40,821 nucleotides of DNA from Stramenopiles sp. TOSAG23-3. Lineage: Eukaryota. The notes under the pieces are model-generated. The model saw only the letters and a program-made list of their open reading frames with translations, was not told the DNA's origin and ran no database searches. The position numbers and the translations under genes were made by a program. Of the stretch, positions 1,204-35,401 are shown piece after piece; position 1 is the first letter of the stretch; each line of letters opens with the position of its first letter. The stretch covers positions 1 through 40,821 of the forward strand of contig LT642180.1 in NCBI GenBank assembly GCA_900128585.1, read 5' to 3'.

Positions 1204-1980
1204 ATGTCGAACCAACGCGAGCAAGTTTTCGCAACTCGCATGACACTTCAGACCTACAAGGGGAAGCACAAGGCTGCGGTCGTAGGATTCGAGTTGTTGA
1301 AAAAGAAGGCGGATGCGCTGAAATCAAGGATTCAAAAGATGATAAGGGCCATACATACTTTGAAATTGAGTATTGGGGACGATGTGAAGAGAGCCCACTT
1401 GGCGCTCGCGAAAGCTTCGTACGCCTCCTCCGGGGGAAATTTTGTTCGGCGCGTGCTGGAGAACGACCACAAAGCAACACTAAAGATTGAAGGAAAAGTT
1501 GAGAATGTTGCCGGGGTAAAGATAGCAAAGTACGTGTCCGTAAACATGCAAGAAGATAGCGAAGGGTCGATGTCTAGTCTCTACGGCTTGTCTGGGGGAG
1601 GCGCGCAGATAAACAAGTGCAAGGAGGAGTTCACGGCGCTGTTGGAGAAATTGATAAGGCTTGCCACTTTGCAGGCGGCGTTCAAGACTCTCGACGAGGC
1701 GATGAAGGTAACGAACCGAAGGGTAAACGCGTTAGACAATGTAGTTGTTCCTAGATTAGCAAATACTGTGCATTATATAACTCAAGAGCTGGACGAGCTA
1801 GAAAGAGAAGATTTCACTCGACTGAAAAAAGTTGTATCGCAGAAGCAAGAAACCGATGAGGCGGACGGGGCAGACGGTGCAGGAGAAATGGATCCGACAC
1901 TTGACGGGGGAAACTCAGGGCCAAGCGCTTTGGATGAGTACAACGTCGAGGAAGAGGACGAGGATTTATTGTCTTTCTGA
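1204..1980 (+). CDS. ATP6V1D: V-type proton ATPase subunit D
   Basis: Typical motifs GFELLKKKADALK, ENVAGVKI, GLSGGGAQI, LATLQAAFKTLDEAMKVTNRRVNALDNVVVPRL, ELDELEREDFTRLKKV. First ATG is at 1204 (the ORF track starts at GTG 1198). Confidence 0.97.
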   Translation: MSNQREQVFATRMTLQTYKGKHKAAVVGFELLKKKADALKSRIQKMIRAIHTLKLSIGDDVKRAHLALAKASYASSGGNFVRRVLENDHKATLKIEGKVENVAGVKIAKYVSVNMQEDSEGSMSSLYGLSGGGAQINKCKEEFTALLEKLIRLATLQAAFKTLDEAMKVTNRRVNALDNVVVPRLANTVHYITQELDELEREDFTRLKKVVSQKQETDEADGADGAGEMDPTLDGGNSGPSALDEYNVEEEDEDLLSF

Positions 1981-2092
1981 GTGGAACAATTGCCGCGCAA
2001 CACAGCATATACAATGTACAGCACACAGTGTGATTTTTTCATAGTAAAGAACTTATTTTCTTTTTTTAAAATGGCCTTCTCCTCTCGCGCCC

Positions 2093-3595
2093 CTAATTGC
2101 TGTCACCTCCATTTTGGCTGCCGACGCGCGGAGTGACTTCTGCGAACATTGGAACTTTCTTGTAGTCTACAAACAGATCTCCGTTGTTCGTCTGCTTCGT
2201 TGCTTCCACCCACGCATATTGCAACAATTCTTTGGAGGTCATATTGACCGAGTCCTTCAGAGCCTTGAACAGACTAAGTTGCGCGTCGTACTTGTATTTG
2301 AGCGCGTTTGCTTTCGCGGTCCCGTTCGATCTTCTCTCGTACGATTGCGCGCCCGCTTCAATGGCCCTGATCAACGCTTCAGACCGAGCTTGCAGCAATT
2401 CGCGTTGGAATCGGATGCTGGCCCTCTCCTTCTGGTTGTTGGCATCTGTTACTTTTAAGATCCTGTTTCGTTTGGCAACTTCAATATCTTTCTCAAGATT
2501 TATCAGTTTGATGTCCCGGTTACGCAGAATTTGTTTCTGCAGGACCAACGAATCCGTCAACGCTCTGGTAACTGCACCTTCCCTATTCAATCGCGCGTTG
2601 TTAATCTCTCTTTCAATGTCGATCAGCTTGACAGTAATGTCAGTTTCCAGGTCAATTTGAGCCTTGAGGTATTCATTCGTCTCGTTCATCAGTTGCAACT
2701 CTCGCAGCTGCATCGCCTGCTGCTGCTCCAGCCTTAACATGTATATCTCTCTAATCGTGTTTTCATATAGGTCGGGCAAATCTACGTGGAACAAGTGAAC
2801 GTTCAGGACTTCGGCATACATAGATTTGGCCGTCGCGTTAGCAGCAACGGCGAATTTGCGAGCCGCATGGCTACGGTTTCTTCCTAAAAATTGTGTTGCT
2901 TCAATTTTTGAAGCTACGTTTTGCATGGCACCGAAAATGGCGGTTTGAAAGTAAGGAATGTAATTGGCTCCGGTCAAATTGTACAACTCCAGGATGCCGT
3001 CACGATCTAATTTGTAATCCACTGCTACTTCCATTCGCAGTGGCAATCCTTCCAGCGTGCGGGCTTCGAAAAGAGGAAAATACTGTGACGACGTTTCTTT
3101 CTCCTCCAAGACCGTGTTCTCTTCTTCGGTTTGAGAAGGAGTCGTATAAATAAGCCTCTGTCGATTCTTCGGATAGCACACAAAATTATGATCTATCCCG
3201 ATAAAGTAGGTCCCAGATTGCCCATCGTTGTACAAATAGGGGTCAACCCTTTGGCTGATTGTCCCATATCGAATACAATATTGGAGCTCTGAAACGTACT
3301 TGAAAGACGTGGCAAACATAACGATGAAAGTGATAGCCCAGGCAACAACGAATCCATAACAACTTAATTTCACCTTTACGGGCAAGGAATCAAAACACTC
3401 AGCCGCTGATTCAGCAATATAAGTCAGAGACGGGAGACGGGATCCTTCATCTTCGGGGTCACTGCCGGCACGCTCGGCGGCCGCGCCCAGGTCTCCGCCC
3501 AGGTCTCCGCCCGGGTCTCCGCCCAGGTCGCGCATTTCTACCTCCCGGCGGTTCCTCCTCTTACCTAATGCTACAGCGGCGGACACCGTTCTCAT
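2093..3595 (-). CDS. SPFH/Band-7 (prohibitin/stomatin-like) membrane protein with long C-terminal coiled coil
   Basis: One TM segment (YGFVVAWAITFIVMFATSF), then SPFH-like GTYFIGIDHNF, ARTLEGLPLRMEVAVDYKL, VLNVHLFHVDLPDLYENTI, then a heptad-rich tail. Confidence 0.8.
   Translation of the reverse strand: MRTVSAAVALGKRRNRREVEMRDLGGDPGGDLGGDLGAAAERAGSDPEDEGSRLPSLTYIAESAAECFDSLPVKVKLSCYGFVVAWAITFIVMFATSFKYVSELQYCIRYGTISQRVDPYLYNDGQSGTYFIGIDHNFVCYPKNRQRLIYTTPSQTEEENTVLEEKETSSQYFPLFEARTLEGLPLRMEVAVDYKLDRDGILELYNLTGANYIPYFQTAIFGAMQNVASKIEATQFLGRNRSHAARKFAVAANATAKSMYAEVLNVHLFHVDLPDLYENTIREIYMLRLEQQQAMQLRELQLMNETNEYLKAQIDLETDITVKLIDIEREINNARLNREGAVTRALTDSLVLQKQILRNRDIKLINLEKDIEVAKRNRILKVTDANNQKERASIRFQRELLQARSEALIRAIEAGAQSYERRSNGTAKANALKYKYDAQLSLFKALKDSVNMTSKELLQYAWVEATKQTNNGDLFVDYKKVPMFAEVTPRVGSQNGGDSN
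3484..3531 (-). repeat. 12-bp x4 coding tandem repeat (DLGG/DPGG)
   Basis: + strand units cgcccaggtctc, cgcccaggtctc, cgcccgggtctc, cgcccaggtcgc. Confidence 0.9.
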
Positions 3596-4627
3596 TTTTG
3601 ACAGTGATATATAACTTCTAAAATTACATGTAAGAAGATGATTTTTCCCCGTCGAAAGATGAAAGACAAATAATCTGCATAAAAGGCATTAACATATACT
3701 CTGACACATTATAATTTAGTCTGCAAAGATTATTCCCTTTGTTGACAAGCTGGATAATAATTATTGTACAACAAGGTAGAAGAAGATACAATTCCTAGAC
3801 TATGAAATATAGTACGAATAAAAATAAAAAGATCTATAATAGCTATCTATATTTATTATCTCCCCCTTTTATCCCCCCCCCCCCCCTCTGAAAATGCTTT
3901 GCACGGAAGTCGCAGCGGAGTGTTCCTGGTTCGTCGGCACCAGCGGTATTTCGGTGGTCTCAGGAAGGTCATCTGTGATGGGGGACTTCACAGAGTTCAG
4001 TGGAAGGAAAGAGGAAAGGAAATAAAAGCATTGCTTTCGTCTGTTTGATGATGATCACATACGAGGGTACTCGCAAGGTAATACTTGATCTATATATTTT
4101 ATAATTATTAATACATCAAATTCATACTTTATTTTTAGTCGTCTGTCTATTACGCGTTCGTACATTACATTATTGTGACATTCTCTTGCAGTTTTTCTAT
4201 TCTATATAATTAGCTACATATCACAAATTAACGAATAGAAAATTTGGTTGTGTCCTTGATTTGATGATGTTGCGCAAATTGAGTAGGTACAACAGGTAGA
4301 CTAAGGTAGACTACGAAACCTCCATTAAATATAATTCACTCTTTTACTCCTCTTCTGTTTGTTGTTGTTGGTTGTTGCTGCTGCTATTGTTGTAATGGAT
4401 GATGATGATGATGCAGTTCTTATCCAGAGTTCTTCCGTTACTTCCTAGTCGTGGTGAGACTATAAACAGAAAGAATTGAGCAATGAACAGCTGCTCTCGA
4501 CAGTCGTGTCTTTCTGAAAGAAAAATGAACGTAGCGGATGAAAATTGCAAAGGAAAAGCATACTTTCAGAGTTGTATCTATATAATATAACAAGAAATTA
4601 AGTTAGAAAAAAACTTGTACACTCACG

Positions 4628-5503: not shown

Positions 5504-5574
5504 GTATTTTACAAAAAAATTACGAGAGTTAAGAAAATTAAAAATGTATCTTTGTGTTTCTGACATTAAAAAAT

Positions 5575-5595
5575 AAATTGGCTGTTATTTAAGTA
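5575..5595 (-). repeat. Convergent-gap micro-element copy (AAATAACAGCCAATTT core)
   Basis: aaattggctgttatttaagta is the exact reverse complement of 28926-28946; it lies between direct repeats tctgacatta (5559-5568 / 5619-5628). Confidence 0.85.
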
Positions 5596-6749: not shown

Positions 6750-7388
6750 GCTGCTGCTGTTGTGGAAGAAAGCAAAGTTCTCAAAAACAAGAAATTGAAA
6801 AACCGACTAAGCTTGAATTATAAACAATATTCCTCTATACATTGACCACGACGTCATACAGTCATTTGCATGGAAGAGTCTTTTTACAATTCATATACTT
6901 GTACCAACATTCAACCAGAAGAAGAAAGGGAAAAGCGATTTTTCACAATCGCGCGTGGAGAGGAGAAGTAAGAGGTATATAATAATATTAATCGGGTTCG
7001 TCGTCGTTACTACTACTCTCTACCGTAGTTATATATTACCGCAAATATTCCATTATAAGTTATTTATTAGACGACTACTATTTATTATTATAAAAATACT
7101 ACAGACCACCACAGCAGTAACAGCCATGTGGTGATGTGATGATGATGATAATATATTTTGATGATGAATAATTGATTGTTGAAATTGAGAAGATATATTA
7201 TTATTATTTATTATTTATTATTTATTAGACGACTAAAATCAATCTTATTAAATCTGTCCTACGAGATCAAAATTCAACAAAGAATGATAAATAAAATGCT
7301 GCGAGTCAGTTTTCTCTGATTCCTGTGTAGATTAAATATTTTTCTCAGGGAAAAGCACATCGCGGCAGATTTTAGAGCTCTTGCGCCA

Positions 7389-8625: not shown

Positions 8626-8787
8626 CAAGAAAATTGGCTGTTATTTAAAGTAATTTATAAAATTAAAACAAGAAGAAAATTGGCTGTTATTTAAAAACAA
8701 AAAAATAATTGGCTGTTATTTCAGCAATTAAAAAAAACAAATTATATAGTATGTTTTATAACAGCCAATTTTCTTGTTTTTGTTTTA
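8626..8787. repeat. Cluster of four micro-element copies (three on -, one on +)
   Basis: aattggctgttattt within 8626-8646, 8673-8692 and 8707-8721; taacagccaattttcttgtttt at 8759-8780 flanked by tgtttta direct repeats. Confidence 0.9.
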
Positions 8788-8809
8788 AGACTCTCATTTT
8801 AAATCAATT

Positions 8810-12431: not shown

Positions 12432-13441
12432 TACTAATATTTTGTACTATTAATGAACATATTCCTATTCATAAAATCAATCGAAACATCACGCACAAAT
12501 ATACTATACACACAATATTGAAACTATTCACCCAATTCCTTATTTTCTTCTTTTATTTTTCCTATATCTATAATACTATACATTTCAGTATTCTATTCAT
12601 TTTATTTTTCGCTATTTTTCCAAGAGAAGAGAGAGGAGAAGAGAAGAAAAAGAAAAAGAGGAAAGAAAGAAAAGAAAGACGAACAAAAAAAGAAAGAAAG
12701 AATAATGATTAATAAAATAATACAGTAATAATAGAAGAAGAAGAAGAAGAAAAAAACATTGAAGGAAGGAAAGAAAGAAGACACTCTCTACTCTACAGTC
12801 TTCTACATTATAACATATACACAGGATAGAAAAAAGCATCGCCACCACCAATCCCTTTTATATAGCTATAGTGAGGAGACATAATTCTCGGCCTTTGATT
12901 GACACAGCTCCAACTCTCATCTCTCAACTGTGGCACTACGTAAGCGTAAGCTCACACAGTATACACAAAAGTATAGCTAAATAGACCAGACCACTTTATT
13001 ATATTTTTTTATAATGATGATGTTAGTTGTGTGTTTATATAATAATTTAATTAAATAATACCACCACCAGGTATATAACATACACAGAGCACCAAGATAA
13101 TGGATAATAATAATAAAAAAATCATCATCATTAATTTATTTTATTATTTGTTTTGTTGTTTGTTGAGCGAATTATTTCTTTCATTTTAGTTTAGTTTAAA
13201 TCAGCAGGACGACCGGGGTTCACTTCCACTACACCACTATGACACACTTTTGATTTATAAATTTGATTGCCTTGCGTACATTCCAGATGGATTGCTAATT
13301 ATATTGTCACGCACAAACACTTTTGAATTTTGAGTTGGTAAACATCGTTCCCCACGACGCAGCTATTACACCTACGGCAAGTTGCAAAGGTCAGTTTTCT
13401 CCATTACCCCCCTGCAACACGTTGACGTTCGATCGGGCACC

Positions 13442-14595: not shown

Positions 14596-14615
14596 CTTAA
14601 ATAACAGCCAATTTT
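14596..14615 (+). repeat. Convergent-gap micro-element copy
   Basis: cttaaataacagccaatttt. Confidence 0.85.
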
Positions 14616-16511: not shown

Positions 16512-16792
16512 TGTATCCTGTTCGCTCGTAGTTTATCTCTCTCTCTCTCTCTGAATTTAGTCGTGTATGAAACGATTACTTTACTTACTGAAATGAAAAA
16601 ACTTCCGGGGTGTGAAAGGCACTTCGTATCAGTCTTCAATACTTATGTTATACATGTAAATGCCCGGCACGAAATCATATGAATCGTGTTTGTTAGTTTT
16701 GTTTGTGATAATAAATTAATAATAATAATAAAAAAAAAAATACAGTAATAATAATAAAAATTAAAAAAAAAAGAGAAGAACAACCTACCAGG

Positions 16793-16870
16793 AGAAGAAG
16801 AGAGTGAAGAAAGAAGAAGAAGAAGAAGAAGAAGAAGAAAAAAAGGGAAGAAGAAGGAGGCGAGAAGAAG
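16793..16870 (+). repeat. (GAA)n-rich purine tract
   Basis: Direct inspection. Confidence 0.85.
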
Positions 16871-17261: not shown

Positions 17262-17398
17262 CTTCCTTCTTCTTCTTTCTTCTTCTTCTTCTTCTTCTTC
17301 TTCTTCTTCTTCTTCTTCTTCTTCTTCTTCTTCTTCTTCTTCTTTTTCTTCTTTCTTTTTCTTCTTCTTCTTCTTCTTCTTTCTTCTTCTTCTTCTCT
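17262..17398 (+). repeat. (CTT)n microsatellite / pyrimidine tract
   Basis: Long near-perfect CTT run. Confidence 0.95.
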
Positions 17399-26363: not shown

Positions 26364-28742
26364 ATGGGAAACGTCGAGGCGGGCTGCTGTGCAGCCAACC
26401 GGGAAAAACCCAAAGGGAAGCTGAAACCTGGAGATATGGAAAAAGCAATTAAAAACTTTCAAAAAGATCTTTTGAAGGAGTGGAAAGCCACAAACAGAAA
26501 CTCGCACCGGTTTATTTACAAAAAAAACCTGGCTGGTAATATTTGGCCGGAGATTGCATGGGGTTTTATACAACACCAAGCCGGGCTGAACCCGAATTTC
26601 AAAAGAGCTGTGGAGGGCTTGGCATTACGGCCCAATTACCGTACAGTCTATGATCGAAAAATAATGACAGTATCGGAGTTATTGACAGTATTAAATACCA
26701 TCCAGGCCATGTTCATCATAGACAAAGGCAGGTTCAATGGCAAGAACGACACGAATATATTGAATCTTGACTCCGATGTTACCCTGAAATTTCTGGCAAA
26801 TAGTGAAATACTGACGAACTTTGCGATGCTGAATTTTGAAGACTTCGTGCTGAAGCAGTACGGAGATACTGAAAAGAAGTGGTGGAAGATAAATGCAAAA
26901 ATAAAGGACAATCTTCTGAAGGCAACTTCCAAGACGTACCCAGACTGTGGTTCTATACTTTCGGCGAAAATTGAAAAGTTTTTGAAGGCAAGAGACGAGG
27001 ACTACCCTGGCGTGTGCATTGAATTTTTGAATTTCTTGTATTGGAATAAAGATGACTCGACCTGCATCGATGAAGCATACTGCCAGCTGCTCCTTTCTGC
27101 CTCACGCACCACATCTTACAGCGACGGCCAGTTGACGAGAATATGGCGATGCCTTCAACTGTTAGCGCGGTGCCTTGCACCGAAGGAGGAATTAGGACGT
27201 GTGATAATTTCCTGGAGCAAAGAGCTATTGACAATAATGACGGAGCATGCGGGGTATGATTTGCGCGGCGTTATCCCTGAGTTGATCAAGCTATTTTTAG
27301 AAAATTTTCGTTCAGTTTTAAAGTCCGGTTCAAGGACATATTTTCCGTGCACTAATGAAATTGCGACACAGCTCCTGAATGCTGGGCAGCAATCACCACG
27401 ATCGTCTCATATAATGATGCGGCTTTGGTTCAAGAGCGGAGAAACCATTCTTCTGGACATTCCAGACCCGCACTGGACAGCACAGAACGTCATAGACCAC
27501 ATATTGGGCGCTATTGGAATATCGCCAGAAGCTGGACCACTTTTTCACCTTCATTTGATAGGCACAAAAGGCAAGGAGACAAAAGATCAGACCTATACCT
27601 GCGACCTGCCACGAACCGAGTTGTCCTTCAAGCTGCCAGAGGATTATTCAACGGCGCCCGGAACAATTAACGGAAGTGGCTTACCTGAGGACAAGGCCTT
27701 TCTCCACATGTCCAGCAATTCCGATTTTGTGAATGTTCCGTTTCTTCGTCAAAAAGAGCACAGCAAGATTTATAAAAGGTTTGAGTCTCAATTTGGCTTC
27801 ACAAACAACATGGTACAAGGCAGCAATTTCGTGTCTCAGGACGAACAAGGCACAGCATGCAAGCCTTTTGCTCTGGTCGGCGATACTGTCCATCGTACAC
27901 GCACCCTGGACAATGGTGATGTAATTTTGGACTTTCTTGGATACTGCGAAACCATTGAAACCAGCAGGATCAACCCCGACTTTTCGATGCACATTAGCTT
28001 GGAATCGTCAGTTGCGTTAATATTCGACAGAGAGAACGAGGACGAAGTTCGGTTTAAGTTCAACGAAACATTGTGGGATATAATATCTGGGCGATATAAT
28101 TTAGAGATGACAGACGTTGATGCTGTTAGTTTAGCAGCAGTGGCGCTTGTTGCCAAACTTGGACCCTTAAGTTCAATAACCCAACATATTCGAAACAAAA
28201 CAAATCAGGACGACGTCGACATCGAGTCAATACTGTGGAAACAGATCAACATCAATTTGTTCGTACCGAAACCTAAAATCGAGGCTGTAAAGGCAGATAC
28301 AAAAATCGTGATTTCGTGCATAAAAGGCTTGCAGAGAGCGACGAAGCACGAAGCCCGCTTGCTGTACTGGGACTTTTGTGTTAGTAAGTTTTTCCTTTTT
28401 GGTGCCCGTATGTTTACCCTGGACAATATTGAGATAGAAAAAGTCTTCGGGAACCGGGGAAGAGAAATTGCAGGAGACACCAAAAGCAACGTTATGGCAA
28501 TTAGCAAATCTGGTATTATTTTGATAGATGTGGCAAGTGGTTCCATCAGCTACAAGTTTACATATGCGCACATAACGTTTTACGAGGTGGATGGAAATGT
28601 GCTTCGATTTCAGCACAAAATCCTTGATCAAAAGGAGGCACAGAGTAGGTCTTTTTCGCTCAAAGGCCAAGGTCTAGGTCACGCGTTCACACTGTTAGAC
28701 ATGTACTGGAAGAATAGTAATTTAAAGGAAGGCCCGGGCTAG
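26364..28742 (+). CDS. MyTH4-FERM domain protein without motor domain, N-terminally acylated
   Basis: MGNVEAGCC; MyTH4-like IDEAYCQLL...RIWRCLQLLARCLAP...RTYFPCTNEI; FERM-like IISGRY...AVSLAAVAL, FFLFGARMF, MAISKSGIILID. Confidence 0.75.
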   Translation: MGNVEAGCCAANREKPKGKLKPGDMEKAIKNFQKDLLKEWKATNRNSHRFIYKKNLAGNIWPEIAWGFIQHQAGLNPNFKRAVEGLALRPNYRTVYDRKIMTVSELLTVLNTIQAMFIIDKGRFNGKNDTNILNLDSDVTLKFLANSEILTNFAMLNFEDFVLKQYGDTEKKWWKINAKIKDNLLKATSKTYPDCGSILSAKIEKFLKARDEDYPGVCIEFLNFLYWNKDDSTCIDEAYCQLLLSASRTTSYSDGQLTRIWRCLQLLARCLAPKEELGRVIISWSKELLTIMTEHAGYDLRGVIPELIKLFLENFRSVLKSGSRTYFPCTNEIATQLLNAGQQSPRSSHIMMRLWFKSGETILLDIPDPHWTAQNVIDHILGAIGISPEAGPLFHLHLIGTKGKETKDQTYTCDLPRTELSFKLPEDYSTAPGTINGSGLPEDKAFLHMSSNSDFVNVPFLRQKEHSKIYKRFESQFGFTNNMVQGSNFVSQDEQGTACKPFALVGDTVHRTRTLDNGDVILDFLGYCETIETSRINPDFSMHISLESSVALIFDRENEDEVRFKFNETLWDIISGRYNLEMTDVDAVSLAAVALVAKLGPLSSITQHIRNKTNQDDVDIESILWKQININLFVPKPKIEAVKADTKIVISCIKGLQRATKHEARLLYWDFCVSKFFLFGARMFTLDNIEIEKVFGNRGREIAGDTKSNVMAISKSGIILIDVASGSISYKFTYAHITFYEVDGNVLRFQHKILDQKEAQSRSFSLKGQGLGHAFTLLDMYWKNSNLKEGPG

Positions 28743-28782: not shown

Positions 28783-28863
28783 GTGTACTTTTAAGACCAA
28801 TCAATTGGAATCTTGACCAGAACTTGGGGAGGATCTGCAAATAGGAGGTCAGATATTGTTCTT
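28783..28863 (+). repeat. Dispersed ~80-bp repeat, copy 2
   Basis: 58-bp identity to 8810-8867. Confidence 0.92.
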
Positions 28864-28925
28864 GAACTGAGACACCTTCTTTTTTCTTTACTTTTATTAG
28901 AATCAATTTAAGAATTAAATTAATT

Positions 28926-29078
28926 TACTTAAATAACAGCCAATTTTCTTGTTTTTAATTACTATAAAATAACAGCCAATTTTCTTGTTTTATTTTTTTT
29001 TTCTTGTATTTAAGAAGCAATTCATTATTCTCACTCGTTAAATAACAGCCAATTTTCTTGTTTTTATTCTCACTCGTT
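28926..29078 (+). repeat. Cluster of three micro-element copies
   Basis: aaataacagccaattttcttgttt at 28931, 28967 and 29040; the last is flanked by ttattctcactcgtt x2. Confidence 0.92.
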
Positions 29079-29244
29079 TCCTTCTCATATTTAAGCTAAT
29101 GAACCCAGTACACACTCGTTAACTCTCGGTTGACTCATTTTGAAAAGTTTAACATTTTTTACGCCGTAGCTTAAATTTGGTGGGGTGGTACATTTAACCC
29201 CCCCAAGTGTCTTGTAATGTTCTCTCGCCAAGATTGTGGCGGTA

Positions 29245-30663
29245 CTATCTGCCAGATGACGGAGAAATTTTCTTTTTAGTCGCTCGTCGTTTTACGTGCT
29301 TGCTATTGTTCAAGCTTTTTGCCCTGAGCTGAGCCGGGGAAATAACGACCGCCCCTTGCGGCGTGCCCGTCGGTTTACCGTACTTCATATTCATACGGTT
29401 TTTTGCACTACCACTTCTACTGCCCGATCCATTTCTATCACGATAATCTTGATACACTATCGTTTTTCCAGCGTTTTGCATGTTGCTCTTCTGCCGTCTC
29501 TGGTTTGGACTCTGGCTCTTGGATGATGCTTGCTGATCCTTTGGAGGAACAAAACTTTGTTGCTGATTATAAGCATTGGGGTTTGAATACGGCATCGATG
29601 GGGCTGAAAAAGATTGCGGTGCAGAGTATGGCTGAGGGCTAGGATAGGGCGACATTTGTGAATTTTGACTGACACCTTGCTGACCATAAAAGGACGGTGG
29701 TTGCTGCCAGGCCGATTGCTGGGCTGCTGGCATTTGCTGCTGTGGCTGACCCCAAGTGTTGGGGTTCGGAGTTGCCATGTTGGGTGGATTTTGCTGCCAA
29801 CTGCCATTTTGCTGCGCACTTGGACCGCCGTGCTGTTGTTGTTGCTGCTGCTGCTGCTTCGGGTAAAACGATAACGGGGCCGATGAATTAAAAGCGTTTT
29901 GCGGGGCTTGCATTGGCGGGTTACTCGATTTTGGCGAAAAGTAACCTTGGGGCTGGGGTTGTCTTGGCTTCACGGATGCGGACGCAGACGATGGGGCATT
30001 CTTGGCCCCATTTCCACTGTACGGCGGCGGTTGATTTCCCCAGAAGTTCACCGTTTGCTTTTCCGCCACCACCGGGGCACTGAACGAAGTTCGACCAAGC
30101 GTTTGGCTGTCCCCCAAGGCATCGTTGTAATCGCCAATTATGATCGGAACTTCGTTTCGCGGAGAGCCATGGGAGTTAGCGCGTTGCACGCCGTGGCGAG
30201 GGGGGCGACCATTTGGTTGCCCATAGGCATCAAAACCACTCCCTTTTGACCGACCTTTGGGAGAAAACTGCATGCCGTTGTCTCCCTGAAATCCGACACC
30301 ATCACCATCCCCCGAGACCCCTTGCTGCTTTAATTGAATTGTCTTTGCGACGCGGTCCGCACTGTCCAATGCCCTCCGCGAGCGGGCAACTGCATCCAGC
30401 ACCTCTTGGTGTTGCTCGGGTGGGGTTCGACATCTCCACTCAATCGGCAAAAGTTTCGCTTCCTTTTCTGCATCGGCAGTAATACTTCTTCCATTGCCCC
30501 GCACGCGACCAGATCCATTTCCCTTTCCCCTCTTCCCACTCCCACCCCTGCTATTACGACTCGAACGACGGTCACTGCGGTCACCACTGCTGCTATTGTT
30601 TCGCGAGTTGCTAGCCCTTTCACCGCCCGTCCGCTTCGATGATCCACGCGGGTTTTGTCGCAT
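29245..30663 (-). CDS. Hypothetical low-complexity (R/S/G then Q/P/S/N-rich) disordered protein
   Basis: Long ORF from ATG 30663; polyQ and QQP-rich prion-like region. Confidence 0.7.
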   Translation of the reverse strand: MRQNPRGSSKRTGGERASNSRNNSSSGDRSDRRSSRNSRGGSGKRGKGNGSGRVRGNGRSITADAEKEAKLLPIEWRCRTPPEQHQEVLDAVARSRRALDSADRVAKTIQLKQQGVSGDGDGVGFQGDNGMQFSPKGRSKGSGFDAYGQPNGRPPRHGVQRANSHGSPRNEVPIIIGDYNDALGDSQTLGRTSFSAPVVAEKQTVNFWGNQPPPYSGNGAKNAPSSASASVKPRQPQPQGYFSPKSSNPPMQAPQNAFNSSAPLSFYPKQQQQQQQQHGGPSAQQNGSWQQNPPNMATPNPNTWGQPQQQMPAAQQSAWQQPPSFYGQQGVSQNSQMSPYPSPQPYSAPQSFSAPSMPYSNPNAYNQQQSFVPPKDQQASSKSQSPNQRRQKSNMQNAGKTIVYQDYRDRNGSGSRSGSAKNRMNMKYGKPTGTPQGAVVISPAQLRAKSLNNSKHVKRRATKKKISPSSGR

Positions 30664-32090
30664 GATACCGTGTGGTTTATTGTTCTTCCTCAAAAACTGC
30701 CACAGAATTCTTACCAATCTAATTCTTAACACTTCCCTCTACCATTCGCGTAAGTCTTTCATCCCTTTATCCTTGCCCCATAGATTCTTCGTTCATGCAC
30801 AGTGTCGACGTCCATCACAATCAATAAAAGAACGAAACTAGAGCTTCTTCGAGTGCGGATGATATTATAGATACTGTGTTTATGTTAAAATTTAATAGAG
30901 AGAGGATCATTATTATTACAATTATTAATATTACAGCATGATAAATTCGTTACATTAGTATGATTTTATGACTTAGTAAGTGCATAAATATTTATTTTAA
31001 ACTACATCCTTTTAATTGTACTAAGAGTTAATCACGATTCTTCTGCTTTACGTTTAAATATGAATTGTACTAAAATATCTAATTAGATATAATACGTAGA
31101 CGATAAACGACGGCTTGACAAAGAAATGAAAAAAAAAGAGATAGGGGTCCCCCCTTCATTTGCCTGTACCTGGTACCTGTGCCTGTACTGTGTAAATTAT
31201 ATATTTATTTTTTCTTCTTCTGATCGGTTACAAATAGATCTTTTATTTATAGAATTTATTCTATTGTATTCTATCGTTCCTATTAATTACTATGATTTTG
31301 TTTTTCGTTCAAGTTGACAACGCTGTGTGTATATATATATTACTCTGTGGTTTGTTCGGTTCTGTTGATAAAAATTGTTTCAATTTTGTGAATATATCAG
31401 CTATTTATTAACCCTATTTTTAAACATGCATACAATTCTATTATCTCGAGAAGAATCTTCTTTTCTCAAAAAAAAATAATAATAATAATAGAGTTTTATC
31501 CGTTCACCCCATCCAAATGCTGTACCTATGTAAAATGTAAACGAATTAAATTGACACTTATCTCTCCTCGTATTCCGATTATTAGCTGACGACAGTGCTG
31601 TGCTGCCTGCCTCTTCTATCTACCTAAAAAAACAACCCTTCTTTCCTTCTTGTTTTGCTTCTCTTTTTTTTTCTTTTGTTGAGCTCTTCTTCTTCTTTCT
31701 TCTTCTTCTATTATATTATTTTTTTATTCTTTCTTCCTCCACATTCCATCATAATTTTATTATAATTATCATCTCTTTCAACAAATTTCACGCTTAATAT
31801 AATATCTTGAATATAATAAAAAATGGTGCATTACAATCATGGAAGGTTTTCTAGTTGTGGTTTGTCATTACGAAAAACTTAGAAAGCTTAAGTAAGTGGT
31901 GCATTGACAGTAAAAAAGGTTATTTTTAATTTGTATCGCTGTTGTTCTTTCGTGCAAGGTTGCAGAGAGTTTCTAAGCGACCCACTTCACACTTGCGCCC
32001 AGGTAGTTGCGAGAGTGCGACATCGTTTCCTCCTCTCGCGAACGTGAACGGAAGAGTGCGCTTTTGGAGAGTATTTAGAATAGTATCAAA

Positions 32091-33185: not shown

Positions 33186-33489
33186 GCAAACATTATTGAA
33201 TGCAACAAGCGTAGAACGAAAAAGATCTCTATGCAAAAAACAGTTTTTCTAAAATGCATCATGATATACCATCTAAATCTAATATAATTTCGGAAAAAAA
33301 ACAAGTTTTATATGATATCATATAAGTATGTACGTTTTACTGAGAGATATGAAAAAAAACAAATTATATTGTATGCTTTAAGACTCTCATTTTATATTAG
33401 CATTAGTTTTTTTATATAATATGTTTTTTCTTCATATGTTTTCTATAAACTTCTAAAATTCCGTCTCGTTCCAAATATAAACCTACGGA

Positions 33490-33530
33490 TATAACAGCCA
33501 ATTTTCTTGTTTTTATAATTTGTTTTTTTT
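33490..33530 (+). repeat. Micro-element copy with T-rich tail, flanked by 12-bp direct repeat
   Basis: tataacagccaattttcttgtttttataatttgtttttttt between taaacctacgga copies (33478-33489 / 33531-33542). Confidence 0.9.
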
Positions 33531-33535
33531 TAAAC

Positions 33536-35401
33536 CTACGGACTTAAACTTTTACTTTGTAAAGTTGCTGGAGTCACACTTCCGCTCTTAAGAATCATGG
33601 GCAGGTTTTTAGTTTGCCCCTGCTCTCCACTAAATTTCATAGTTGGGTATAATTTTGACAATGTCTCCACAGAGTGCTCTATTTGACGATTCAGAGAGGA
33701 GTTTAGCTTCGGTCTTGGTTGATAAAGAGGTTTTCGGGTTACCATTTGCGTCTCGTTCGATTTCTTACTATTGTTGCTGCTTGGTTTCGGGCTCACTACC
33801 GAGTCCTTGGCTCGGTTCGACGATTTGTTGTACAGGACAGCGCCATCATCTCCAGTACGTTTACCCATTTTGCTCGAGCAATTATTTTTCTTTTTTCGGA
33901 ATCCTCCTTTACGGAATCTTCGGCTTTTCCGTATAGTCGATTTTCTCAGGTCTGCCTGTTTCTTTCTAATTTCGGCTCCCTTTTTTCTGACAGATTCTTC
34001 CGCTTTTTTTTGTCGTTTTAGAACTCGAGCATTGCCGGCTGTTGAGGGGCGCAAATTTCGCAATGCAGACAAGGGGGACCCTGCAGCAGTGGGTGTCGCT
34101 TTCGGAGTCTTTGGCCGCGATTCCTTGAGTAGCTTTATCGGAGATGAATAATGATACAGGGGGTTTCTACAAATTATGGGTTGGACAACGGGTTTCGGCT
34201 TAAAGTGTCCCGGTACTGTGGGAACGAGTCGATTTTTTTTTGCCATCAGTAGCAATCGGTAGCGGTAGTACTCGATGTTTTCCGCAAACGGTGGGAGCGT
34301 TAATCCGTCCCTTCGGACCACACGCTTTACACGGTCATGTTCGTCCATTGCAATTTTTCCACAAAAGAGCAATGCGATATCAATGCTAATAATGTTTTGG
34401 AGAATGTTGACAGCTCCTTCAAAGTAACACTGCGCCTTTCCATCACCACCAGGCTCGCTGGTGTCTTTCAGCCCACGTTTGGCGTTCACACAGAATTTCC
34501 AGCGTCTATCGGGGTCGGAAACGTATTTTTCCAGCATGTTGAAGAGTTCCCGAAACGAATGCTCTTTTGCTTTTGCAGACACAAAATATGTCACAGCATG
34601 CTGAGTCAATAGTTGTCCTGGGGTTACCAATGTATCGTTTATCGTCGCGAAGCCTTCTTCAGTTTGGGTGTCTGCACGCGTTTCCCCAGGCCTTCTCAAT
34701 TTGAAACGGGACCTCCCGAAATTCCAGGGCTGAACCTCCTCGTTGATTCTTCGTACTAGGTGAGTTCCTATTTCGTGCACCGCAAAACTTCTCAAACGGA
34801 CTGGGTTGCGCGGCAATCTAGTGGATACATACAAATAGTGTTTACTTGCAGAGGTATTGGACTTGTCAAAATATTCGTCTGTGCATTTGAACCGCGCATA
34901 GCTAACAGATTTCCTGTTTATAAAAGTACCACTGTTATGCATATCAGCAAACTTTATTTCGCAGTAGCTATCTACCCGTGTTTTGGCCATGTAATCGTTG
35001 AGATAAGCGGACGTCTGCTCTAGAGACCATTCGATATCGTCTTCTGAGCCTTTTTCAGGAAGGTTTCCTTCCAACACATTGCCCTCACCATATCGTTCAA
35101 TTGCGGCCTCCAAAATTCCAATAGCCTCAGGGAGTTTGTCCTGCTGCTGTTCGTGTATCTTCTTCTTAAACATGTCCTTGATTGTCTTCTGCGATATCTT
35201 ATACTCAAATTGTGGGTTGTAGTCATCCGATGCCTCAAACTTCTTAAGTTCTTCTTTAATGTTCTTTGCCAGCAGTTTATGCCTCGGGGCATACGATGAA
35301 GTCTTCACCTTTGGTATTTTCGGAGATTTGTCCGACACATAGTCGTCCGCATAGTCCGCAACATCGTCCGACAAGTCCCACAAATCGCACTCCCGGCACA
35401 T
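33536..35401 (-). CDS. MATCAP: MATCAP/KIAA0895-family microtubule-associated tyrosine carboxypeptidase-like metallopeptidase
   Basis: YNPQFEY, HEIGTH (HExxxH), TEEGFA, SFRELF, RWKFCVNAKRGLKDTSEPGG, QCYFEGA, GKIAMDE; basic C-terminal tail. Confidence 0.85.
   Translation of the reverse strand: MCRECDLWDLSDDVADYADDYVSDKSPKIPKVKTSSYAPRHKLLAKNIKEELKKFEASDDYNPQFEYKISQKTIKDMFKKKIHEQQQDKLPEAIGILEAAIERYGEGNVLEGNLPEKGSEDDIEWSLEQTSAYLNDYMAKTRVDSYCEIKFADMHNSGTFINRKSVSYARFKCTDEYFDKSNTSASKHYLYVSTRLPRNPVRLRSFAVHEIGTHLVRRINEEVQPWNFGRSRFKLRRPGETRADTQTEEGFATINDTLVTPGQLLTQHAVTYFVSAKAKEHSFRELFNMLEKYVSDPDRRWKFCVNAKRGLKDTSEPGGDGKAQCYFEGAVNILQNIISIDIALLFCGKIAMDEHDRVKRVVRRDGLTLPPFAENIEYYRYRLLLMAKKNRLVPTVPGHFKPKPVVQPIICRNPLYHYSSPIKLLKESRPKTPKATPTAAGSPLSALRNLRPSTAGNARVLKRQKKAEESVRKKGAEIRKKQADLRKSTIRKSRRFRKGGFRKKKNNCSSKMGKRTGDDGAVLYNKSSNRAKDSVVSPKPSSNNSKKSNETQMVTRKPLYQPRPKLNSSLNRQIEHSVETLSKLYPTMKFSGEQGQTKNLPMILKSGSVTPATLQSKSLSP

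Follow-up and report, generated by a model that had tools for sequence, protein, structure and literature searches.

The window analysed here, the whole stretch of 40,821 nucleotides of contig LT642180.1 from Stramenopiles sp. TOSAG23-3, has an intron-poor, eukaryotic gene content with V-ATPase D, Tsr1 and BEACH among its genes. The feature under study lies in a convergent spacer, between two host genes whose ends face each other (Table 1). Here the 15-mer TTATTCTCACTCGTT is found twice in identical form, and by direct reading of the window its two copies bracket the 24-mer AAATAACAGCCAATTTTCTTGTTT. The perfect 15-bp repeat around a 24-bp unit described in the initial annotation is exact to the base. 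The same annotation judged a chance origin unlikely, and the counts agree: with up to 2 mismatches allowed on both strands of the window, the 15-mer has 2 matches, the pair alone, with no third, while shuffled controls gave a mean of 0.15 matches and reached 2 matches in 1 of 100 shuffles. When the window was screened for exact, non-microsatellite direct repeats of at least 13 nt with a spacer of 15-70 nt, five pairs were returned; four of them consist of copies of the unit, and the remaining one is the 15-mer pair.

Both junctions of the unit are ambiguous by 2 nt, because the consensus of the family described below has TT directly before AAATAAC (T in about 70% of 143 listed copies at both positions) and the commonest ending of its tail is five T (66 of the 143). 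The duplication therefore measures 11-15 bp around an insert of 28-24 bp, and the stub could span 29038-29065 if the junction T's belong to the element.

Table 1. Features of the window (positions are those of the whole stretch)
Feature	Position	Strand	Remarks
Further tail copy	5574..5588	-	In convergent spacer
Cluster of four tail copies	8630..8782	three -, one +	In another convergent spacer
Further tail copy	14601..14615	+	In convergent spacer
Host gene left of spacer	26364..28742	+	792 aa, weak MyTH4/FERM matches; 3' end toward spacer
Longer 5'-truncated copy, related subfamily	28783..28991	+	Interrupted by tail copy at about 28929-28956
Left copy of presumed target-site duplication	29025..29039	+	Unambiguous core 29027-29037; terminal two T's may be the element's
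Putative 3' stub of retrotransposon (last 3' UTR bases and T-rich tail)	29040..29063	+	Fixed end common to listed copies
Right copy of presumed target-site duplication	29064..29078	+	Core 29066-29076
Segment absent from X4 contig		29036..29105	.	70 bp: unit, one duplication copy and 31 bases
Host gene right of spacer	29245..30663	-	472 aa, low complexity, without Pfam match; end toward spacer
Second duplication-bracketed copy	33478..33542	+	Own 12-bp duplication (33478-33489, 33531-33542), 41-bp insert
Sister-family sites	33346-33395 and 8727-8800	-	Also in loci L019 (7560-7670, 9550-9945) and L071 (6100-6670)

Alleles of the locus could be compared in contigs of 4 of the 24 listed runs (X3, X4, X6 and X9). 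The contigs of X3 (29041-29412) and X6 (29039-31647), runs that come from other studies, hold the unit and the right-hand 15-mer, neither of them covering the left junction; for X9 no piece is listed at this site. In X4, 29035 is followed immediately by 29106 in one contig (4,355 nt, depth 25); window positions 28967-29035 lie at 4288-4355 of this record and 29106-31647 at 1741-4287, the two pieces being adjacent. This contig shows a haplotype without the unit, a state that may be ancestral or derived. The initial annotation had suggested looking for an allele with a single 15-mer and no insert. X4 does lack the unit, but its gap is 70 bp and not 39, so that a deletion after the insertion, and not the ancestral state, may account for its allele. 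The further 31 bases that X4 lacks (29075-29105) look by eye, on the reverse strand, like a scrambled piece of a subfamily 3' UTR and may stem from a small insertion of earlier date.

The window contains 10 copies of the unit's core, where 0.34 would be expected, and by a reading of the ORF list these copies are in 5 of the 7 convergent spacers and in none of the 11 tandem or divergent ones. The tail copy that interrupts the longer truncated copy is identical to the region of the 24-bp unit over 29 nt and lies 109 bp upstream of it in the same orientation, which makes it a candidate local template. Contigs of runs X3, X4 and X6 all break at 28783, the start of the longer copy. The second duplication-bracketed copy is filled in runs X4, X6 and X9. 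Its insert (33490-33530) consists of the tail of the unit's family followed by the tail of a sister family within one 12-bp duplication; this arrangement could come from one insertion nested in another or from a switch of template from one RNA to a second. In the cluster of four tail copies, the plus-strand copy sits within a sister-family 3' end, which is found without interruption at about 33346-33395.

A reading of the unit as a small-RNA gene or spliced leader found no support, an Rfam search of the window having given no match. Long AAG/CTT microsatellites (828-923, 12622-12751, 16792-16856, 17266-17396 and 31639-31709) lie in spacers without element copies, and the tracts at 16792-16856 and 17266-17396 form an inverted pair.

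A dispersed family with one fixed 3' end

A metagenome scan with a 22-mer of the unit yielded at least 132 stretches, grouped as 130 loci, and counts drawn from them describe samples chosen for holding the motif. Together with the window, the 130 listed loci contain at least 195 distinct copies of the core. One T-rich 3' end is common to all listed copies and the 5' stops vary; upstream of the fixed end the copies reach lengths from 24 bp to several hundred and fall into related subfamilies, of which there are at least three. On the strand of the ORF discussed below, the element ends in TTTTCTTGT, then 2-8 T in all. Judged from this sequence comparison, the 24-mer is the fixed 3' end of dispersed 5'-truncated elements and not a stand-alone unit.

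Duplications were sought around 143 of the 152 copies with the canonical tail, 5 overlapping loci and near-identical flanks being left out, at a threshold of at least 10 bp with at least 2 G/C and with 200 shuffled pairings as the control. They are present at 29 of these 143 listed, de-duplicated copies, the 24-bp unit included (shuffled pairings: mean 0.96, maximum 5), and 114 show none at the threshold used. They are 10-17 bp long, have a different sequence at each copy and bracket inserts of 23-336 bp, often where family similarity begins. The 15-mer itself had been expected to recur around the motif at many other loci if it were part of a longer repeat unit; the duplications of the other copies differ from it in sequence.

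A stricter set contains 26 duplication-bounded inserts, a few of them inside older element copies and two rows representing one orthologous site; 8 of the 26 are shorter than 35 bp. T stands before the left duplication copy in 18 of the 26 (69%) against a background of about 35% T, and the base directly 3' of the tail is A in 85% of the 143 listed copies. Another copy lies within 100 bp in 8 of 11 stubs of 50 bp or less versus 3 of 14 longer inserts (Fisher p=0.017, a post hoc comparison of few rows, with L101 left out as ortholog of L011); the other 3 of the 11 stubs have no close copy within that distance. Among the matches listed, a search for empty orthologous sites gave only nested insertions into other element copies, and in the few orthologous pairs among the listed loci both members are filled.

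With the copies having a single fixed end joined to an ORF, a telomere-repeat or terminal-inverted-repeat reading was rejected. A DNA transposon or MITE was likewise rejected: only one end is constant, and the duplications of about 10-17 bp are not of fixed length with terminal inverted repeats. The 3' UTR of one subfamily contains a telomere-like TTAGGATTAGGG stretch (L034 at about 4470, L015, L019, L046 and others). L019 and L023 belong to one contig, which holds a nest of truncated copies of several subfamilies in both orientations (about 6200-15200 of L019); remnants in L019/L023 and in L050 extend to the endonuclease region.

The ORF joined to the tail

In longer copies the end of an ORF, a stop codon, a UTR of 70-90 bp and the tail follow one another on the same strand. 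Protein searches from the remnant of a longer copy, with a cluster look-up, led to the proteins P0172 (1,689 aa) and P0186 (1,422 aa). The C-terminal 92 residues of P0172 (1598-1689) match L011 6829-7107 at 81%, with the core at 7177, 70 bp on; a longer part, residues 1578-1689, has a 74% match in L019, where the tail follows after about 90 bp. These matches link the tail to a predicted reverse transcriptase (RT)/endonuclease ORF, P0172 being joined to it through truncated copies and not through full-length element DNA. Both proteins were deposited under a Gammaproteobacteria MAG label, on contigs of 5.3-5.6 kb, and the phages and plasmids searched gave no match. P0192, a relative of P0172 that falls in the 90%-identity cluster of P0186 (a related subfamily), is labelled MAST-4, which makes a marine stramenopile the probable host. 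Probably, P0172 and P0186 are near-complete eukaryotic retrotransposon proteins misbinned under the bacterial label.

The sequence of P0172 has RT-like motifs in order between residues 315 and 590, at 315, 388, 460 (DAKNAFNS), 529 (GTQQGDP) and 586 (FADD), and these look CRE-like. Further on come a thumb-like motif (844), a C-x7-C-x8-H-x3-C knuckle (1237) with HN, QAD and D...K motifs downstream, and a long low-complexity C-terminus. The order of knuckle and putative endonuclease motifs fits the CRE/SLACS/MoTeR endonuclease pattern given in passages of PMC12857005, with altered spacings; the strict pattern has no match in P0186.

With moderate confidence, the parent ORF can be predicted to carry a reverse transcriptase domain. 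P0192 matches Pfam RVT_1 at E=8e-5, under the curated cut-off, and among the Atlas neighbours of the RT C-terminal part 24 of the 30 named ones are in clusters with some RVT_1 members. This Atlas result, to be read as a lead only, had a score of 0.91, with RVT_1 in 20% and 36% of members in the two rows listed. Pfam gave no RT or endonuclease match in P0001-P0008, P0159-P0163, P0172, P0175, P0186 and P0178, nor did NCBIfam and PDB sequence searches with the family proteins, and a scan of the listed loci for generic RT and GIY-YIG motifs found nothing. Two AlphaFold models were of poor quality (mean pLDDT 48 and 53), and that fold searches with them gave no significant match does not count against the fold. 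In Foldseek, R2 chains came 3rd and 4th, with PA endonucleases near, all at E of about 0.9 and not significant.

Placement and origin of the copies

The placement of copies was counted over 601,541 bp of loci of at least 2 kb, with 7 duplicate or orthologous loci left out and mechanical ORFs as gene calls. None of the 140 copies lies inside an ORF of 150 aa or more, though such ORFs cover 67% of the DNA. Copies occupy 47 of 66 convergent spacers, 18 of 81 tandem ones and 1 of 43 divergent ones (convergent versus divergent, Fisher p=4e-14). Their density is 2.24 per kb in convergent spacers versus 0.03 in divergent ones (about 75-fold), although divergent spacers are longer. In tandem spacers 21 of 24 copies are nearer a gene 3' end, 14 being on the same strand and 10 on the opposite one; relative to the nearer gene, 46 copies in convergent spacers are antisense and 25 sense (p=0.017). 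This bias may come from targeting or from selection, the spacer counts fitting either equally.

How did the 24-bp unit arise? We read it, with a probability of about 0.7, as an aborted target-primed insertion with an 11-15-bp duplication, an extremely 5'-truncated copy of a single-ORF non-LTR retrotransposon of the restriction-like endonuclease (RLE) type. The initial annotation saw a target-site duplication from LINE-type integration or staggered-break fill-in; the target-site reading is upheld by the LINE-type 3' end of the unit and by duplications of similar length at other copies. We infer an RNA intermediate, priming at the tail and two nicks. The element protein would nick the target, and the freed 3' end would anneal to the U-rich 3' terminus of the element RNA, where it would prime reverse transcription. 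Synthesis would halt after about 24-28 nt, the cDNA would be joined through the 2-nt TT match to a second nick 11-15 bp off, and repair would duplicate the target between the nicks. The T before the left duplication and the A after the tail are what pairing of a U-rich tail with the target would predict. The X4 allele without the unit, set against X3 and X6 with it, counts for target-primed insertion and its 70-bp gap against; the 114 of 143 copies without duplication and the full-length proteins without a Pfam RT match weaken the case. The 24-bp copy is itself inert, with no coding sequence within it.

Target-primed insertion is more likely than fill-in from the neighbouring copy, an alternative that we find unlikely and that deserves discussion. 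In this scenario a staggered break, for which the endonuclease of the element may itself be responsible, would be followed by the copying of 24-29 nt from 28929-28957 and by re-annealing; the sequence would still be element-derived, but the 24-bp copy would have had no RNA intermediate. Repair of the polymerase-theta type copies nearby sequence, and the exact 29-nt identity with a same-orientation copy so close upstream, the 2-nt matches at both junctions and the more frequent neighbours of short stubs (8/11 vs 3/14) all fit such an event. However, the identity is no pointer to the neighbour, since these 29 nt equal the consensus of the family. Nesting in older copies is equally expected if the spacers are insertion hot spots, duplication lengths overlap between stubs and inserts of 100-336 bp, and the stubs without a close neighbour (3/11) indicate that stubs can arise without a local template.

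The presence of copies almost only behind gene ends (47/66 convergent vs 1/43 divergent) could also suggest a functional 3'-end signal, such as a termination, polyadenylation or protein-binding site, next to which the 15-bp repeat would be a separate small tandem duplication. This is highly improbable: orientation is mixed in both convergent (25 sense, 46 antisense) and tandem spacers (14 vs 10), 19 of the 66 convergent spacers lack the motif, and the motif is continuous with the element ORF, missing from one allele and without an Rfam match in the window. Hardly credible at all is an origin by chance, or through an artefact of assembly or amplification. In its favour, the spacer is rich in AT and in repeats, and the runs that cover the window best may themselves be its source. 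Against it, the unit with its right-hand 15-mer is present in X3 and X6 from other studies, and duplications across the family exceed the shuffled control by far.

A single 24-bp insertion is an ordinary kind of event. The retrotransposon family from which it would derive is a LINE of the endonuclease type that branches early, has a T-rich tail and belongs to an uncultured marine protist. It seems undescribed: no description was found in the literature searched, which covered few subscription journals and was without Repbase, and in the accessible text of a MAST-4 population paper (PMC13724720) transposable elements are mentioned once and retrotransposons never. If the convergent bias is targeting and not selection, it would represent a new survival route for a LINE in a compact genome; no LINE with a gene-end targeting strategy was found in the literature searched. 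A rather doubtful extension, which we put forward only tentatively, is a CRE-like element without a sequence target that is actively steered to gene 3' ends (convergent termination zones) and leaves mostly T-tailed stubs of 25-50 bp, some of them multiplied where the element itself nicks the DNA, through copying of a local DNA template. Were such active steering true, it would mean gene-end targeting in an abundant marine protist, with insertions still differing between cells. The stubs could serve as presence/absence markers in population work.

Relation to known retrotransposons and a sister family

Insertions of 5'-truncated L1 and R2 elements have a fixed 3' end, a variable 5' end, duplications of about 10-15 bp and short junction matches, features that recur in the stub family. 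Truncation to less than 35 bp, as in 8 of the 26 bounded inserts, goes far beyond what is usual for L1. SIDER retroposons of Leishmania accumulate in 3' UTRs; they derive from ingi elements of the APE type and measure hundreds of bases, whereas most copies of the stub family measure tens of bases. Passages of PMC12278014 describe SIDERs as short non-autonomous LINE remnants, and in this respect the stub family, also consisting of short LINE remnants in a protist, resembles them. According to parts of PMC4640811, L1 carries an endonuclease of the APE type and ends in poly(A), R2 inserts specifically into 28S rDNA, and most clades with a restriction-like endonuclease are target-specific, HERO being the main exception.

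The EhLINE1/EhSINE1 elements of Entamoeba histolytica have a restriction-like endonuclease, insert without a target sequence and only in intergenic DNA, make target-site duplications and carry a T-rich 3' tail, for which pairing with the target has been proposed (PMC1635306, in part). The stub family, likened to them by description only, is also T-tailed, untargeted by sequence and placed outside ORFs. EhSINE1 is a defined SINE, whereas the stub family consists mostly of stubs of tens of bases with a strong gene-3'-end bias.

By its order of knuckle and putative endonuclease motifs and by its RT motifs, the parent element looks CRE-like. As far as passages of PMC12278014 describe the CRE clade (SLACS, CZAR and CRE1/2; MoTeR and FoTeR in fungi), its members encode in a single ORF the RT and, after it, a CCHC knuckle and a restriction-like endonuclease, and their target-site duplications vary; trypanosomatid CRE elements have a fixed target and a poly(A) tail. 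The arrangement of RT, knuckle and endonuclease in one ORF, as predicted for the parent ORF, and the variable duplications are likenesses to the stub family. The candidate PD-(D/E)xK-type endonuclease of P0172 departs from the CRE pattern in having C-x7-C, PHN for RHN, QAD for R/KPD and a 56-residue insert before the next acidic residue, and its ORF of 1,689 aa differs from that of CRE in the long low-complexity C-terminus. CRE elements use fixed sites (spliced-leader genes, telomeres), whereas the stub family is dispersed without a shared target sequence: flanks and duplications differ, and only a T|A bias is seen at the tail junction. In contrast to the poly(A) end of trypanosomatid CRE, its tail is T-rich. 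With the fixed target and the poly(A) both absent, the element is not placed in the CRE clade.

A sister family has a different T-rich 3' end, GAGAGTCTTAAA...TATAATTTGTTTTT, with 22 matches of its 12-mer. In the window its tail is found both filled and empty, the unit being within 8730-8800 and absent from 33352-33395. The sister-family ORF runs on past the endonuclease region (L023:3124-4728), and stretches of this part presumably resemble Ulp1 and OTU proteases; a Pfam search did not confirm the Ulp1/OTU resemblance. In NeSL and Utopia, as described in parts of PMC4640811, the Ulp1-like domain is N-terminal, and a C-terminal one in the sister family would therefore be unusual.
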